From Alphaproteobacteria bacterium (GTDB lineage Bacteria > Pseudomonadota > Alphaproteobacteria > SMXQ01), in the NCBI GenBank assembly GCA_033720855.1, contig JAWWBR010000003.1:3614-67613 (forward strand): a DNA stretch of 64,000 nucleotides, written 5' to 3'. Each line of letters opens with the position of its first letter. Positions within the stretch are counted from its first letter, which is position 1. Shown one piece after another: positions 46,285 through 51,086 of this stretch. The notes below the pieces were generated by a model. The model did not search any database, had not been told where the DNA came from, and saw only the letters and a list, made by a program, of their open reading frames with translations. The translations under genes were made by a program, and so were the position numbers.

Positions 46285-47487
46285 CTAAGCGACACCTTGA
46301 ACCTGGGATTGCCAGGAAATCCCTCCCAGCCCCGGCAGATTTGGGGTTCGCCCTGCAACTTCCAGCACCCTGGGGTGGTCGAGAACGGCCATGCGCTCGC
46401 CATCGTGGACCTTGCGGCCACCGATGGTCAGGGTACCGCCGCGAATTTCGCAAGCCGTATGCAGGTTGTAGGGGAAATCCTTGTCGCGCCCCCCCTGCCC
46501 CAAATGGATGTGCAGACTAGAGGGATGGAAAGAGGCGATGAATTCGCGGTAGTCCTCGTCGGCACATTCCGACGGTGAGATCAAGGCAGAGGGGTGCACG
46601 CCGCCGTGCGGTGCCCGCATCTCATAGGCATGATCCTCGCCGATGGAGTTGGCGAGCGCCGCCAGGAAAGCGCGCAGGGTGTCGGCCTCTGCACCCCCTT
46701 CGACCTTGACTATATGGGTGTCCTTCACCGTGACCGTGACCGGTTCGCTGAAATGTGGCGGCACCCCGATGTTATGGGCCCAGACGGGCATCATGCGGTC
46801 GAAAATGTAAATTCCCTCGCAGTCCACCGGGTTGACGGCGGGATATATGCCATCGGGAAAGGGGCGGTAGAAGCCGTCCCGGCGCCAATACACATAGGTG
46901 GGCCGGGTCTTCGGGCCGGGACCGACTTTGCCCGTCAGGTGGGTCCCGTTGGGATGAGTCAGCTCCCATGGCTCGCCGGCGACGACCAGCTCCCCCATGC
47001 GGTAGCGGATTTCGGCAATCAGGTCATGGGGGGTACGCGCCCAATCGGTCATCAACAGCGATGCCGTCGTCGCCATGTTGCGGACCATGGGCAATTCGTA
47101 CTCGCGCAATGTTTCCGGCAGTTCCTTCAGATGCTCTTCGGAGGACAGATCGAATACATGGCTGATCAGGATATCCGCTTCTTTCATGGCCGCCTTGACA
47201 TCGCCCGGGATGCGCCAAACCGTCTCCCTGGTGGCGATGTCGGGCCAGATCAGCTGCGGTCTGTCCGGCATATCCACCCACATCACCTTGGCGTCCGCGC
47301 CACGCTTGCGAACGCCGTCCGCAATCCACCCGACCGTGGCCTGATCGACGATGTTGGCGCCACCGTTGAGGCCGTCATTGGCGGCCAAGATCAGGACGTT
47401 CTGGCCAGCCTGGATGCAGGCGCAGTTATCCAGAAGATCATTGACCGCGGTGGCGGCCTTGTCCGGGATGTCAGGCAAGTCGTTCAC
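46285..47487 (-). CDS. M29 (aminopeptidase T/AmpS)-like metalloprotein, possibly NicX-like dioxygenase
   Basis: 400 aa; N-terminal AVNDLLDNCACIQAGQNVLILAANDG and C-terminal ...HIVKVEGGAEADTLRAFL... follow the M29 family layout. Catalytic residues not verified. Confidence 0.45.
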   Translation of the reverse strand: MNDLPDIPDKAATAVNDLLDNCACIQAGQNVLILAANDGLNGGANIVDQATVGWIADGVRKRGADAKVMWVDMPDRPQLIWPDIATRETVWRIPGDVKAAMKEADILISHVFDLSSEEHLKELPETLREYELPMVRNMATTASLLMTDWARTPHDLIAEIRYRMGELVVAGEPWELTHPNGTHLTGKVGPGPKTRPTYVYWRRDGFYRPFPDGIYPAVNPVDCEGIYIFDRMMPVWAHNIGVPPHFSEPVTVTVKDTHIVKVEGGAEADTLRAFLAALANSIGEDHAYEMRAPHGGVHPSALISPSECADEDYREFIASFHPSSLHIHLGQGGRDKDFPYNLHTACEIRGGTLTIGGRKVHDGERMAVLDHPRVLEVAGRTPNLPGLGGISWQSQVQGVA

Positions 47488-47556
47488 GGTGTCCTCCCAG
47501 ATCCTAGTCCTTGTCTAGCTATCCCGCCGCCCGCTTCGGAGGCCGCCGCGATCGCA

Positions 47557-48330
47557 TCACCGGCGTGTACGGCCCGCGGTCGCCCCGCCGTCCAAAACGA
47601 TCACGGCACCCGTCAGATAGCCCGCCGCCTCGGACGCCAGATACGACACCATATGGGCGACATCGGCGGTGGTGCCCCGGCGGCCGATGGGGATGTTTTC
47701 GGGTGGGGATTGTTCCTCCGACGCGCTCCCCGGCCGGTGACGGATGGACCCGGGCGCGATGCAGTTGACGGTAATACCGTAGGGTCCCGCCTCCACGGCG
47801 AGGACCTTGGTCAGCATCGCCACCGCCGCCTTCGAGGCCGCATAGGCGCCGCCCGTTGCATAGGGCGAAAGGCCGCTGATGGAGCCGATATTGACGATGG
47901 CGCCACGACCATGCTGTTTCATATAAGGGAGCGCACGTTGACTGCAGAGCATGGTCCCCTCGACATTGACGCGGAAGGTTTCGCGCCATGTACCCGGGTC
48001 GTGGTCTTCGATCAATTCGAGCGGGTGAACGGCGGCGTTATTGCACAGGAGGTCCAATCGGCCAAAGGTTTCAACGGCACTGTCGATGGCATGGCGCGCC
48101 CCGTCTTCGCTGCCGATGTCGGCCTCCACGAAACGCAATCTCCCGGTTTCGTCGCCTGCCGCCGATGCCGCCGAGCACGCACCTCCGTCCCTATCGGCGG
48201 CGACGACCGACATCCCCTCGCCGGCCAAGTGCCGGGCGATGGCATATCCGATGCCGCTGGCGCCTCCGGTGACGACGGCAACACGCGAGGTTTCAGCCAA
48301 TACCACGTCCTCCGGCCCGTCCGCGAACAC
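47557..48330 (-). CDS. short-chain dehydrogenase/reductase (SDR)
   Basis: VAVVTGGASGIGYAIA...NNAA...YAASKAA. Confidence 0.75.
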   Translation of the reverse strand: MFADGPEDVVLAETSRVAVVTGGASGIGYAIARHLAGEGMSVVAADRDGGACSAASAAGDETGRLRFVEADIGSEDGARHAIDSAVETFGRLDLLCNNAAVHPLELIEDHDPGTWRETFRVNVEGTMLCSQRALPYMKQHGRGAIVNIGSISGLSPYATGGAYAASKAAVAMLTKVLAVEAGPYGITVNCIAPGSIRHRPGSASEEQSPPENIPIGRRGTTADVAHMVSYLASEAAGYLTGAVIVLDGGATAGRTRR

Positions 48331-49131
48331 TCAAGCCGCCAGCACCGGCTCGGGTCTTGGCTGACGTTTGTCGATCGAAGGCGGAATAAGGCCCGAGGCC
48401 TCGAAACACCACACGCCGACCTGGTCAGACCAAATGCGGTTGACCTCCTGCCTTTCCCGCATCGCCGCCAAACAGGAATCCTGCTTCTCCCTTGTGTCGG
48501 CAAACTGGTCCAAAAAATCGAGCGGCGCATCTCCATGACCGCCTTCGCCGCCGTCGGCGGCGTCCGCCGAGTCCCAATGCGCCAAAGCCGTTTCGGAAAG
48601 CCCCAGGGAGGCAAAGGTGTCTCGCGAGGTGCGGGCCCGCTCGCCGACGCGCTCGATCATCGCCTTGCCGCGGGCGACCTCGTTGCCGGCGATGGCCGCG
48701 AAGGCTTCGAGCCACGGCTTGGTTCGGCTCACCCAATCGCAGTATGCGATTCGCATCTTGGTGACGGGGGCGCCGGTATAAGCAAGAACAAATTCTCTCT
48801 CGGCACCCAGTTCGTCGACGAAGTCGACCAGGCTCTCGTAGTGGCCGGTGGGGATCGTGGGGTCCTTGACCTCCTCCACGAACATATTTTCGATCAGGTA
48901 TTTGCGCACCTCGAGGTGAGGGCAGTTGCCCGTGATATTGGCCAACCAGCGGGGAAAATTCGCCGCGAACACGCAGTGCTCCAAGCCGTACACCAATGCC
49001 CCTTCACGCGTGAGATGATTGCGCAAAAAATCCTCGAGGATCGTCGGCGTATCCCATCGCATTTCCTGCAAAAGATCGAGAATGGCCTCCCTGAATTGCT
49101 CGGACGTTCGTGTCATCGCACCGTCTCCCAT
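48331..49131 (-). CDS. heme-oxygenase-like fold protein (TenA/PqqC/CADD iron-containing redox enzyme family)
   Basis: 266 aa all-helical protein with E/H-rich segments (GLEHCVF, ENMFVEE, GHYESLVDFVDELG) resembling HO-like diiron enzymes; tentative. Confidence 0.45.
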   Translation of the reverse strand: MGDGAMTRTSEQFREAILDLLQEMRWDTPTILEDFLRNHLTREGALVYGLEHCVFAANFPRWLANITGNCPHLEVRKYLIENMFVEEVKDPTIPTGHYESLVDFVDELGAEREFVLAYTGAPVTKMRIAYCDWVSRTKPWLEAFAAIAGNEVARGKAMIERVGERARTSRDTFASLGLSETALAHWDSADAADGGEGGHGDAPLDFLDQFADTREKQDSCLAAMRERQEVNRIWSDQVGVWCFEASGLIPPSIDKRQPRPEPVLAA

Positions 49132-49318
49132 CCTTTGTTCCCGAGTTTACCGGGCGTTGCCGATCAGGGTACGGCAAGGAGCGGCCACCGCACAACGGTG
49201 TTGGCAATATGGTTGCTGGCACCCAGCCGGATGCGACGCCGGGGGCACCTGGAGCGGTGCGGATATGAGTCGCGACCGCCCCGGTCGGATCGATGAGTGT
49301 TAGGGATTGTGGCGGCGT

Positions 49319-50821
49319 TCAGGCGCTCTGGCGCATCAAAGCCGCCAAAGCCTCTTCCGGCTTCGGGGTCTTCGGCTGGGTGGCCTCGCTCTTGACGAAG
49401 AGGTTGAGCATCGCATCGCGAACGTTGTCCGGCGTGAACTGCGGCGAAATTCCCTCGAACTTACATGCCGACAGCACTTGCGAAACGATGAACTGCGGGT
49501 GGAAATAAGCCAGCGGCGCATCATTGGCCCGAATTTCGTCCAACACCTGCTGATAGATCTCTTCGCTAAGCTCGATGCCTTCCTTATTCGAGACATCCTC
49601 AAACACCTTGCGGAAGAGTTCCTCCGAAGGCTCCACGGTCTCCAGCTTGTACGTGATGCGGCGCAGGAATGCGGGGTCCATCAGGTCGTTGGGATGCATA
49701 TTGGTGGAGAAGATCACCAGTTCGTCGAAGGGAATCTGGAAAGACTTACCGGTGTGCAGATTCAGGTAATCCACCCGATCGTTCAAGGGCATGATCCAGC
49801 GGTTGAGAATGTGCTCCGGCTCCACTCTCTGACGACCGAAATCGTCGATCAGGAAGACGCCGTTCAATGCCTTGATCTGTAACGGCGCCTCATAGAACTT
49901 GGAAATCTCGCTGAACTGGAGGTCGAGCATATCGAGCGTCAACTCTCCCCCGGTCACCACCATCGGCCTGTGACACGGAACCCAGCGCTTGTCCATCACT
50001 TCACGGTGAAGGGTGGGCCGGGAATCCACCCCGGCCGCGGCGTCGCTGATCGGCTTGTGAACACTGGGATCGAAAACCTTGATGATCTGGCCGTCGACCT
50101 CGAAACAATGGGGGATATAGACGACGTTGCGGAACATTTCGGCGATGATCTGTGCGACCGTCGTCTTGCCATTGCCTGCCGGCCCATAAATCAGAATCGC
50201 GGTTCCGGAATTGATCGCCGGCCCGAGGCGATTGATAAAGCGATCCGGGATGACGAGGTGCTTGAAAGCCTCCCGGATGTCATCCAAATTCACCCACTCA
50301 TTGGTAACACGCTGCAGAGCGACGCGCTCCTGATACGCCTCCAGGCTCACCGGCGCCGGGCCGAAATACTGACATTGATCCAGCGATTCGTTGGCCCAGT
50401 CGCGTCCCAGGCTGGTGAGCTGATACCGCATCTCCGAAAACAGGGTGCTCGCCGAATCGGCTTGCCCCACGATTTCGGCCATTTTTCGCTCCACCGCATC
50501 TTGCAGCAGCTCGTTGACCAACGCGTTGGGAAGCCGCATCGCTTCCGACATCTGTGATGGTGTTTCGAAATTCTCCGTGTGCATGCCCTTGATCATGAGC
50601 TGCAGCAACATCATGGGATCAACGTCGATTTCACTGAGATTGCGTGGCGCTTCGGGGGTCTCGCCCAGGACGGCGTTTATATCGTCCTCGCTGATGACGC
50701 CAAGGGCCACGAGACAATCGCCAAAGCGCCCTCCGTTCTCGTGCTGATATTTCAATCCCTGCTCAATATCGGCAGGCGTAACCAAGCCCTTGGCTACCAA
50801 AATGTCGCCCAATAACAGCAT
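49319..50821 (-). CDS. fusion protein: T2SS-E N-terminal (MshEN-like) domain plus CbbX/SpoVK-type AAA+ ATPase
   Basis: The N-terminus has two tandem 24-aa motifs, LLGDILVAKGLVTPADIEQGLKYQ and RFGDCLVALGVISEDDINAVLGET, separated by a 5-aa spacer. The AAA+ part has Walker A ILIYGPAGNGKTTVA, Walker B VFLIDDFG and sensor-2 FLRRITYKLE. Start chosen at the ATG at 50821 with an AAGGAA RBS; alternative at 50920. Confidence 0.65.
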   Translation of the reverse strand: MLLLGDILVAKGLVTPADIEQGLKYQHENGGRFGDCLVALGVISEDDINAVLGETPEAPRNLSEIDVDPMMLLQLMIKGMHTENFETPSQMSEAMRLPNALVNELLQDAVERKMAEIVGQADSASTLFSEMRYQLTSLGRDWANESLDQCQYFGPAPVSLEAYQERVALQRVTNEWVNLDDIREAFKHLVIPDRFINRLGPAINSGTAILIYGPAGNGKTTVAQIIAEMFRNVVYIPHCFEVDGQIIKVFDPSVHKPISDAAAGVDSRPTLHREVMDKRWVPCHRPMVVTGGELTLDMLDLQFSEISKFYEAPLQIKALNGVFLIDDFGRQRVEPEHILNRWIMPLNDRVDYLNLHTGKSFQIPFDELVIFSTNMHPNDLMDPAFLRRITYKLETVEPSEELFRKVFEDVSNKEGIELSEEIYQQVLDEIRANDAPLAYFHPQFIVSQVLSACKFEGISPQFTPDNVRDAMLNLFVKSEATQPKTPKPEEALAALMRQSA

Positions 50822-51086
50822 CACACGCGTTCCTTTTTCATCAATCCGGCCACGGCGCCACCCTGCCACCCGGGGGTACGGCTGGGCCACGGGACCTCTC
50901 GCGTCAATGGCCTCAAGCAAAAGGCTTTGGGCCCTGCGCGACGCTAACCTGAATTTATTGACGAAAAGTTATCCCTTACCGTGACCGAACAGATGGAGGA
51001 CGGCTCCGGTCCGATAAGCCCTTGCCGGCGGCTCCGCGTGTGAGCAGTTGCTATAATCCAGCCCGAAACTGAAGGGAGGTCCCATC

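Follow-up and report, generated by a model that had tools for sequence, protein, structure and literature searches.

In c-di-GMP networks the enzymes of signal synthesis and breakdown far outnumber the known receptors, and MshEN_N is among the few portable receptor modules for this nucleotide. The described systems closest to the gene reported here are MshE, PilB and PilF, in which an MshEN (GSPII) domain is placed N-terminal on a secretion ATPase of the T2SS-E/PilB type (5HTL; PMC5013675). Wang et al. also listed proteins that carry the MshEN_N half only, among them EpsG (MshEN_N-AAA_31), Bd2402 (REC-MshEN_N-UNK), and CheX and Peptidase_M23 fusions (PMC5013675). The gene described here follows the same principle of a 53-residue portable input on unrelated outputs, with an output absent from their architecture table, namely a winged helix followed by an unnamed family of AAA+ ATPase. 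EpsG itself is a ParA/MinD-like tyrosine kinase and not an AAA+ protein. FleQ is likewise an AAA+ protein regulated by c-di-GMP, but it binds the nucleotide on the AAA+ domain itself and not on a separate module.

The gene was found in a window of 64,000 nucleotides, the whole stretch of DNA that was analysed. Its coding sequence runs from 49319 to 50821 on the minus strand and encodes 500 aa plus a stop. The open reading frame 49319..50920(-), 533 aa from a TTG, is an extended version of the same gene. Translation probably begins with the ATG at 50821, which has AAAGGAA upstream. The same 500-aa start was chosen by gene calls on two metagenome contigs, and all homologues begin at the equivalent position with the N-terminus MxLGD. 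Comparison with database homologues showed 58-78% identity over the full length. A + strand reading of 49319-50920 was ruled out, as its translation is full of stops; the strings quoted in the earlier note, which gave no strand, are all present on the minus strand. An Rfam scan around the gene returned nothing meaningful (one sub-threshold miRNA match), and a promoter and terminator scan of the same region detected neither a σ70-like promoter nor an intrinsic terminator.

49319..50821, minus strand: coding sequence of the MshEN_N / winged-helix / divergent AAA+ ATPase (open reading frame; ATG with upstream AAAGGAA; two metagenome gene calls; full-length homologues)
50822..50920, minus strand: 33 codons of the TTG-extended open reading frame, upstream of the MxLGD start of homologues and of the start at 50821 used by gene callers, with no homologue alignment; probably a 5' untranslated leader and not protein

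Residues 3-55 of the protein form a bipartite MshEN_N motif of 24 + 5 + 24 residues, the layout common to MshE, PilB and PilF.

50744..50815, minus strand: MshEN motif I, LLGDILVAKGLVTPADIEQGLKYQ, residues 3-26; position 1 has Leu in place of Arg, position 24 keeps Gln
50729..50743, minus strand: spacer HENGG, residues 27-31; five residues in 149/149 motif-fitting homologues
50657..50728, minus strand: MshEN motif II, RFGDCLVALGVISEDDINAVLGET, residues 32-55; position 1 keeps Arg, position 24 has Thr in place of Gln

Judged by sequence, the match to MshEN_N is far beyond chance. The NCBIfam model NF053729 ('c-di-GMP_motif, MshE-related') scored 57.7 bits against the protein (E = 7e-16, model positions 2-52 of 53), where the curated cutoff is 38 bits, and phmmer against the PDB found the MshE N-domain (5HTL) at 3e-7 and PilF (6F8L) at 3e-8. 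Of 467 family sequences scanned, 149 homologues matched the motif pattern, and the motif statistics were taken from these. The spacer was five residues long in every one of the 149, and its Gly pair was conserved at 94% and 75% among 36 diverse representatives. AlphaFold2 predicted four helices in the N-terminal module (residues 3-10, 16-29, 33-39, and 45-54; pLDDT 84-95), in agreement with the four-helix bundle of MshEN_N. Pfam PF05157 (T2SSE_N) gave no match at E ≤ 1; the α/β MshEN_C subdomain is absent and a winged helix replaces it. An N-terminus of GspE/PilB type, as proposed before from the sequence, was supported for the bipartite MshEN_N motif and not for a full MshEN/T2SSE_N domain.

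We then compared the residues that contact c-di-GMP. In each motif the Arg at position 1 stacks on guanine and the Gln at position 24 hydrogen-bonds to ribose-phosphate. Like MshE, PilB and PilF, the protein keeps the Gly and hydrophobic positions, the motif I Gln (Gln26; Gln in 146/149 motif-fitting homologues, 98%) and the motif II Arg (Arg32; Arg in 136/149, 91%). In contrast to those proteins, motif I position 1 is Leu3, a position that is variable family-wide (Arg in only 8/149), and motif II position 24 is Thr55, a position occupied by Ala, Val or Thr family-wide (Gln in only 2/149). The earlier note had reported the Arg to Leu change in motif I and the retained Arg in motif II, both of which we confirmed, but it overlooked the Gln to Thr change in motif II. 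Deviation at two of the four key polar positions makes c-di-GMP binding by the N-terminal module uncertain.

The literature on the effect of such deviations is mixed. In PilF GSPII-A, four hydrogen bonds come from the two Gln residues, and binding was abolished where Ser took the position of the motif II Arg; in engineered PilF GSPII-A the loss of one Arg had this effect (PMC12002112). Wang et al. considered that many MshEN domains probably no longer bind (PMC5013675). Changes at MshE Arg9, however, reportedly shifted affinity by less than five-fold. These observations bear on a real possibility, if not the reading that we favour: that the module is a degenerate MshEN_N which does not bind nucleotide, like XpsE or the GSPII-A of PilF, and serves as a structural cap or as a docking or oligomerisation module of the same ATPase. 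The two family-wide deviations are consistent with this, as are the motif II Arg, only 50% conserved among the 36 diverse representatives, and the acidic bundle (net charge -6 in this protein), which counts against nucleotide sensing. On the other side, NF053729 was built for c-di-GMP-binding MshE-related domains and was matched well above its cutoff. Also kept are G5 and G34, which are backbone hydrogen-bond donors, the motif I Gln (92-98%), and the exact five-residue spacer, and the conservation of these Gly residues, Gln and spacer exceeds what the fold itself needs. The N-terminus argues in the same direction. An N-terminal extension of helix α1 was shown to block binding in PilF GSPII-A (PMC12002112), while nearly all MshEN-bearing members have the motif from residue 2-3 onwards, which leaves the N-terminus free of such an extension; unlike MshE, PilB and PilF, the protein also has no basic N-terminal patch. 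Since the ATPase bears at its N-terminus the c-di-GMP-binding module of pilus motors, it is plausible from these motifs that the gene product is a new second-messenger effector, and an AAA+ ATPase under cyclic-dinucleotide control is a plausible hypothesis.

Between the motif and the ATPase we found a winged-helix domain that had been overlooked before, joined to the ATPase by a conserved linker.

50372..50626, minus strand: winged-helix domain, about residues 66-150 (AlphaFold2 model; weak Pfam DnaD_N match)
50348..50368, minus strand: linker YFGPAPV, residues 152-158 (conservation in 58 diverse sequences)

In the AlphaFold2 model the winged helix consists of three helices, a two-strand wing and one further helix, with pLDDT mostly 92-98 and a fall to 70 in the wing loop (residues 121-130). 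Its net charge is -9 here and the family mean is -2.1, with a third helix that is about neutral. In the linker, G154 and P157 were invariant, and Y152 and V158 were at least 90% conserved, across the 58 diverse sequences.

The remainder of the protein is an AAA+ core with the following features.

49637..50254, minus strand: AAA+ α/β domain, about residues 190-395
50162..50185, minus strand: Walker A GPAGNGKT, residues 213-220; G213, G216, G218 and K219 invariant, and the centre of all Pfam P-loop matches
49871..50107, minus strand: insert between β2 and α2, residues 239-317, from the secondary structure of the model; FDPxxH, DxRW and TGGELT motifs conserved
49829..49858, minus strand: Walker B VFLIDD followed by FGRQ, residues 322-331; D326, D327, G329 and Q331 invariant (58 diverse sequences)
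49730..49774, minus strand: predicted pre-sensor-1 β-hairpin, residues 350-364; strands 350-354 and 360-364 between α3 and β4
49697..49711, minus strand: end of β4 with sensor-1 Asn374 (FSTNM); N374 invariant
49658..49663, minus strand: Arg387-Arg388 at the end of α4, positioned from the model, as candidate arginine finger(s); R388 invariant, R387 at least 90%
49394..49624, minus strand: four-helix lid domain, residues 400-476; predicted helices 400-413, 420-432, 442-456, and 464-474

Walker A, Walker B, sensor-1, a candidate Arg finger (within FLRRITYKLE, residues 385-394) and an α/β domain with helical lid are all present, which places the protein in the AAA+ superfamily. The invariance of Walker A, the Asp-Asp pair, the sensor-1 Asn and the Arg-Arg pair (R387 at least 90%) supports this assignment. 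Walker B reads Asp-Asp in place of the usual Asp-Glu, and the β2-α2 insert, about 75 residues long, is specific to the family, with D251, H255, D277, R279 and P286 invariant. The AlphaFold2 model used was built from an alignment with 66 more diverse sequences (pLDDT 89); a shallow alignment of 37 sequences gave pLDDT <50 at residues 287-395 and was not used. Pfam PF00437 (T2SSE) did not match the protein, while the same search method found T2SSE in the CpaF genes that neighbour its relatives at 1e-59 to 1e-66. This bears out the view that the ATPase is not of the T2SS/T4P secretion type, in contrast to MshE, PilB and PilF. The closest structure to the AAA+ core was 8P49, an uncharacterised hexamer from Pyrococcus furiosus (Q8U0N8) with an AAA+ ring and a flexible N-terminal domain; at about 15% identity, archaeal and without MshEN_N, it offers no functional lead. 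The hairpin-clade and LonB comparators are LonB-type AAA+ proteins (4ZPX, 3K1J), σ54 activators (FleQ, NtrC) and MoxR proteins (CbbQ, NorQ), from which the protein differs in having no protease domain, GAFTGA motif or VWA partner and in its Asp-Asp Walker B.

Gene neighbourhoods were examined for possible partners. Around the gene lie housekeeping genes, among them psd/pssA, mscS and cytochrome oxidase, and the MshEN-bearing genes are orphans. No conserved partner of these genes was seen in five gene-annotated loci, nor in an all-against-all clustering of open reading frames within 5 kb at 85 loci; SDR, GGDEF-EAL and PAS-kinase neighbours were about as frequent as expected by chance, and their positions were scattered. 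Tad genes were found neither within the 64-kb window nor near MshEN-bearing loci (0/56). Of the 29 MshEN-less loci, 7 had two or more Tad core genes within 5 kb, 9 had a CpaF-type ATPase in that range, and 9 lie beside or inside Tad pilus operons. A place within or beside tadZ-cpaF-tadB-tadC, as for a locus-encoded Tad accessory, was seen for 7-9 of the 29 MshEN-less relatives and not for this gene. The operon tadG-tadZ-cpaF-tadB-tadC-homologue was confirmed by Pfam, and locus L090 is an independent Tad-linked case. The Tad-linked loci come from Acidobacteriota, Chloroflexota and Rhodobacterales and differ in gene order. Cultured carriers are Sneathiella chungangensis, Geomonas paludis and Sandarakinorhabdus rubra for the MshEN form and Marivita geojedonensis for the Tad-linked form. 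No MshEN domain was seen on the CpaF motor itself in the loci examined.

Our tentative preference, at slightly less than even confidence, is for a soluble and probably ring-forming AAA+ switch or remodeller in which the N-terminal bundle binds c-di-GMP or a related nucleotide and the ATPase acts on a partner protein, pointing to Tad or adhesion. The conserved core comprises the winged helix, the YxGPAPV linker and the AAA+ domain with its β2-α2 insert, pre-sensor-1 hairpin and Asp-Asp Walker B, and the segment in front of it, in this protein the 53-residue MshEN_N four-helix bundle, is the input module. Binding of c-di-GMP or a closely related guanine nucleotide to the bundle would act via the short Pro-rich linker and the winged helix on ATPase oligomerisation, possibly as a hexamer, on ATP turnover or on partner binding. 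The ATPase would then behave as a slow nucleotide-state switch or remodeller acting on a protein partner and not on DNA; a protein target is favoured because the winged helix is acidic. Operon-embedded relatives point to the type IVc (Tad) pilus machinery or cell-surface adhesion as the target, which is extrapolated from relatives at ~40% identity because Tad genes are absent near the MshEN-bearing loci and from the window and the neighbourhood is not conserved. A wider proposal, which we consider unlikely, is that the winged-helix AAA+ core serves type IVc (Tad) pilus or adhesion machines as an accessory ATPase not recognised before, that free-standing versions acquired MshEN_N, FHA or HDOD, and that in Alphaproteobacteria, Acidobacteriota and Geobacterales the MshEN_N form conveys c-di-GMP in trans to machines of the Tad type.

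Switches of the initiator or loader type typically carry an Asp-Asp Walker B. Together with the winged-helix fold of the model and a JGI 'MarR family' label on two relatives, the presence of such a Walker B here raises the alternative of a regulatory ATPase in which the winged helix sits on DNA and the AAA+ domain is a c-di-GMP-responsive transcription or chromosome switch, similar to FleQ or Orc/Cdc6. We regard this as improbable. The charge of the winged helix and its third helix speaks against DNA, the 85 clustered loci showed no conserved neighbouring target gene, and relatives follow tadC inside pilus operons and are not divergent as regulators are. A σ54 enhancer-binding protein in particular was rejected, since PF00158 (Sigma54_activat) matched the P-loop only, below threshold (E = 0.05), and the sequence has no GAFTGA.

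A classical-clade remodeller of the CbbX/SpoVK/EccA type, which would thread or remodel substrates under c-di-GMP control, had been the earlier assignment of the ATPase and is now very improbable. In PDB profile and sequence searches the P-loop and Arg-finger segments do match spastin, Vps4, p97 and FtsH, two relatives carry the JGI label 'SpoVK/Ycf46/Vps4 family', and by eye the Arg-Arg pair is like the Vps4/katanin motif. However, the P-loop, sensor-1 Asn and Arg pair shared with CbbX, SpoVK and EccA are general AAA+ features. Pfam AAA (PF00004) scored 20.9 bits against a gathering score of 21.2 and covered only 37 P-loop residues, no AAA_lid family was matched in the Pfam search, and the 25 NCBIfam matches listed, out of 64, include none of CbbX, SpoVK and EccA. 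Classical members would have no pre-sensor-1 hairpin and would be the nearest structures; neither applies here. The model contradicts the classical assignment, as its hairpin and its large β2-α2 insert are foreign to that clade, and Walker B has Asp-Asp in place of Asp-Glu. An anti-phage defence ATPase related to IetA, suggested by weak matches (PADLOC IetA, E = 1.4e-8; NCBIfam IteA, NF042959, 31.7 bits), was rejected on threshold and genomic context as scarcely credible, because the score is far under the NF042959 cutoff of 510, the matches are confined to the P-loop and the Arg-finger region, the protease partner gene is absent at the locus, and housekeeping neighbours and 58-78% identical orthologues in many genomes are unlike a defence island gene.

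The reading that we favour, a signal-gated switch ATPase, also agrees with the variation at the N-terminus of the family. N-terminal modules were typed on 10 representatives, together with the distribution of N-terminal lengths, which vary across the family. Relatives at 35-40% core identity bear FHA or HDOD in the MshEN_N position, some have no N-terminal module, and a Kordiimonas homologue with 53% identity lacks the MshEN_N module; the segment before the winged-helix/AAA+ core is a swappable input module. These exchangeable modules, the Tad-operon context of relatives and the Asp-Asp Walker B had been overlooked or underplayed in the earlier note. The protein is probably an uncharacterised switch of this kind. 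As had been supposed, it has no established identity: its only names in the sources are 'ATPase', 'AAA family ATPase' and 'hypothetical', and we found no published description of this MshEN_N / winged-helix / AAA+ architecture or of a Tad-associated AAA+. MshEN_N here sits on an AAA+ family that has no Pfam or NCBIfam model and no solved structure. If the module binds c-di-GMP, the protein would define a new class of effectors, present in Alphaproteobacteria, Acidobacteriota and Geobacterales; even without binding, the exchange of FHA, HDOD and MshEN_N inputs identifies the core as a signalling output that merits characterisation, for which the Tad-operon context of relatives supplies a concrete candidate partner. 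The core family contains at least 7,994 protein clusters, is present in at least 538 species genomes and is widespread in soil and aquatic bacteria.

The ORF search returned a single long minus-strand reading frame (49319..50920), which starts at a TTG and spans 533 aa, and plus-strand translation at these coordinates was interrupted by stops. An ATG at 50821, with AAAGGAA just 5' of it, was the start in two independent metagenome gene calls, and all homologues start at the matching position (MxLGD...). The gene is therefore 49319-50821 on the minus strand, encoding 500 aa, and all strings quoted in the earlier note were found in this protein:

Residues 3-26, minus strand, motif I (first 24-residue half of MshEN_N)
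Residues 27-31, minus strand, spacer HENGG
Residues 32-55, minus strand, motif II (second half)
Residues 213-220, minus strand, GPAGNGKT
Residues 322-331, minus strand, VFLIDD-FGRQ
Residues 385-394, minus strand, FLRRITYKLE

The N-terminus matched NCBIfam NF053729 ('c-di-GMP_motif, MshE-related') at 57.7 bits against a cutoff of 38 (E = 7e-16), and phmmer against the PDB, over residues 4-73 only, matched the MshE N-domain 5HTL (3e-7) and PilF 6F8L (3e-8). These results bear out the GspE/PilB-type bipartite motif proposed from the sequence. The Pfam search showed no T2SSE_N match in the protein, the MshEN_C half is missing, and AlphaFold2 predicted four helices (3-10, 16-29, 33-39, and 45-54). 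Of 467 family sequences, 149 satisfied a strict regular expression describing the bipartite motif, all with a spacer of 5 residues and 115 with the motif starting at residue 2. Motif I kept its final Gln (I-24) in 146/149 and motif II its first Arg (II-1) in 136/149, while Arg at I-1 occurred in just 8 (otherwise Leu, Ser, Asn or Lys) and Gln at II-24 in just 2 (otherwise Ala, Val or Thr). Among 36 diverse representatives (clusters at ≤50% identity), conservation was 92% for Gln I-24, 94% and 75% for the linker Gly-Gly, and only 50% for Arg II-1. The module and the winged helix meet at a short PxxP[R/K] motif (50642-50656, residues 56-60, PEAPR); such a motif occupies this boundary in most family members irrespective of the upstream domain.

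Published work cuts both ways on c-di-GMP binding. Changes of Arg9 in MshE shifted affinity less than five-fold (PMC5013675). In PilF GSPII-A four hydrogen bonds come from the two Gln, the engineered domain lost all binding when the motif II Arg was replaced by Ser, and the site is blocked where helix α1 is extended at its N-terminus (PMC12002112); in contrast, the family described here has no residues ahead of the motif, which counts for binding. We judge the chances that this MshEN_N binds c-di-GMP to be about evenly balanced. Control of the ATPase by c-di-GMP is unproven and is weakened by the two non-canonical contact residues; a degenerate, non-binding bundle is a serious possibility, if the less probable one.

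The AlphaFold2 model (built on 66 sequences that share 38-79% identity with the query; pLDDT 89.3, pTM 0.83) predicted the following features downstream:

About residues 66-150, winged-helix domain
After the winged helix, conserved YFGPAPV linker
Residues 213-220 and 322-327, Walker A and Walker B of the AAA+ α/β domain
Residues 239-317, insert of ~75 residues with two hairpins, separating Walker A from Walker B
Residues 350-364, β-hairpin that follows α3 and precedes the sensor-1 strand
Asn374; Arg387-Arg388 where α4 ends
Four-helix lid

Across 58 sequences sharing 30-48% identity with the query, invariant residues included G213, G216, G218, K219, D326, D327, G329, Q331, N374, and R388, so that Walker B is Asp-Asp family-wide. 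The winged helix is acidic, with a net charge of -9 here and a family mean of -2.1, which argues for protein contact rather than DNA binding and makes a DNA-binding regulator unlikely. The earlier note had placed the ATPase in the classical clade, near CbbX/SpoVK/EccA. This assignment is unsupported, because Pfam AAA scored 20.9 bits, below the gathering score of 21.2, and covered 37 P-loop residues and no more; a profile search of PDB sequences aligned just the P-loop and Arg-finger segment; and the top Foldseek match in the PDB was 8P49, a hexamer of the uncharacterised P. furiosus protein Q8U0N8 (E = 3e-12), followed by LonB ATPase, BchI, and RuvB. The modelled AAA+ module looks like a distinct lineage in the pre-sensor-1-hairpin part of the superfamily. 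A CbbX-type remodeller is thus quite improbable, and we give a defence ATPase hardly any weight.

A first homologue search gave at least 7,994 clusters (8,000 candidates), the best 120 of which were full-length at 58-78% identity, mostly from alphaproteobacterial MAGs (Rhodospirillaceae, Dongiaceae), and named only 'ATPase', 'AAA family ATPase' or 'hypothetical'; the exceptions were some JGI names, evidently transferred in error. Among representatives clustered at 50% identity, an exhaustive search gave 705 at E ≤ 1e-30, and a species-genome scan confirmed at least 538 loci; carriers among the matches listed included Sneathiella, Kordiimonas, Sandarakinorhabdus, Marivita, Geomonas, Granulicella, Terracidiphilus, Roseiflexus, Nitrospirota, Myxococcaceae, and Phycisphaerae. 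The core (winged helix, linker, and AAA+) has no model in Pfam or NCBIfam, and its nearest solved structure, Q8U0N8, is itself without known function. In many relatives the alignment begins only at residue ~55, and the core is preceded by FHA (P0176, P0184), by HDOD (P0208), by long low-complexity stretches or by nothing at all. The Kordiimonas sediminis homologue (L023:6007-7329), 53% identical over the core, lacks MshEN_N, with no copy upstream in any frame; the module is gained or lost between fairly close relatives. The position ahead of the core thus behaves as an exchangeable slot for input or targeting. By eye, three further N-termini (P0226, P0255, P0257) appear coiled-coil plus PAS-like, without Pfam confirmation. 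One alphaproteobacterial genome (4,897,822-bp MAG contig) carries two MshEN-bearing paralogues (L004 and L019, the latter in record CBDEHK010000001.1), which share 63% and 48% identity with the window protein and lie ~3.4 Mb apart.

MshEN_N on diverse outputs is established, and the many architectures tabulated by Wang et al. do not include the present winged-helix AAA+ output (PMC5013675). The literature searched held no description of the MshEN_N/winged-helix/AAA+ architecture, in line with the proposal of an uncharacterised fusion. On balance the evidence best fits an AAA+ switch that would assemble into a ring and receive its signal at the N-terminal slot; with MshEN_N in that slot here, c-di-GMP or a related guanine nucleotide is the probable signal. 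Contact with a protein partner would be made through the winged helix and the conserved insert. The invariant Asp-Asp Walker B recalls initiator- and loader-type AAA+ proteins, and on that analogy it points to slow hydrolysis and a switch-like mode of action. The protein is a good candidate for experiment, with c-di-GMP control as the hypothesis.

Gene context gives a single lead to a partner of the orphan forms, the Tad-type pilus machinery. With CpaF, TadB, TadC, and TadZ as queries, two or more core genes lay within 5 kb at 7/29 MshEN-less loci vs 0/56 MshEN-bearing loci. Because a Tad locus makes up considerably less than 1% of a genome, we infer that chance cannot explain this association. 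It was found in three phyla with differing gene orders. In two Chloroflexota loci the CpaF gene begins 12-16 nt past the homologue; in L067 (423-7314) the Pfam-confirmed order is tadG-tadZ-cpaF-tadB-tadC-homologue, the homologue start overlapping the tadC stop; the Tad genes of the Marivita locus were also Pfam-confirmed; and L090 (500-8146) reads TadZ-CpaF-TadB-TadC-...-TPR-homologue. An AAA+ of this core type was not described as a Tad component in the literature searched. At L084 (7518-12587), too, an MshEN-less relative lies inside or beside a Tad pilus operon (tadZ-cpaF-tadB-tadC).

The Tad search found no Tad genes in the 64-kb window, and ORF clustering within 5 kb of 85 loci found no conserved partner of the MshEN-bearing genes. 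A RidA-like gene lies divergently upstream of the ATPase gene, with mscS and psd/pssA beyond it. A tight same-strand pack (46285-49131) starts 187 nt downstream, with no terminator-like site between:

48331-49131, minus strand, TenA/haem-oxygenase-like
47557-48330, minus strand, SDR
46285-47487, minus strand, NicX-like

Cytochrome oxidase genes lie past this group. The arrangement is unconserved in homologous loci, and four further annotated loci had wholly different neighbours. A 900-aa ORF at 46594-49296 on the plus strand, antisense over the three genes, was rejected as a shadow ORF; such ORFs are common in GC-rich DNA, and GC content here is 62%. HEPN plus nucleotidyltransferase toxin-antitoxin-like pairs (L088:9819-10599 and L089:5714-6425) lie <2 kb from two Chloroflexota orphan homologues, probably by coincidence.
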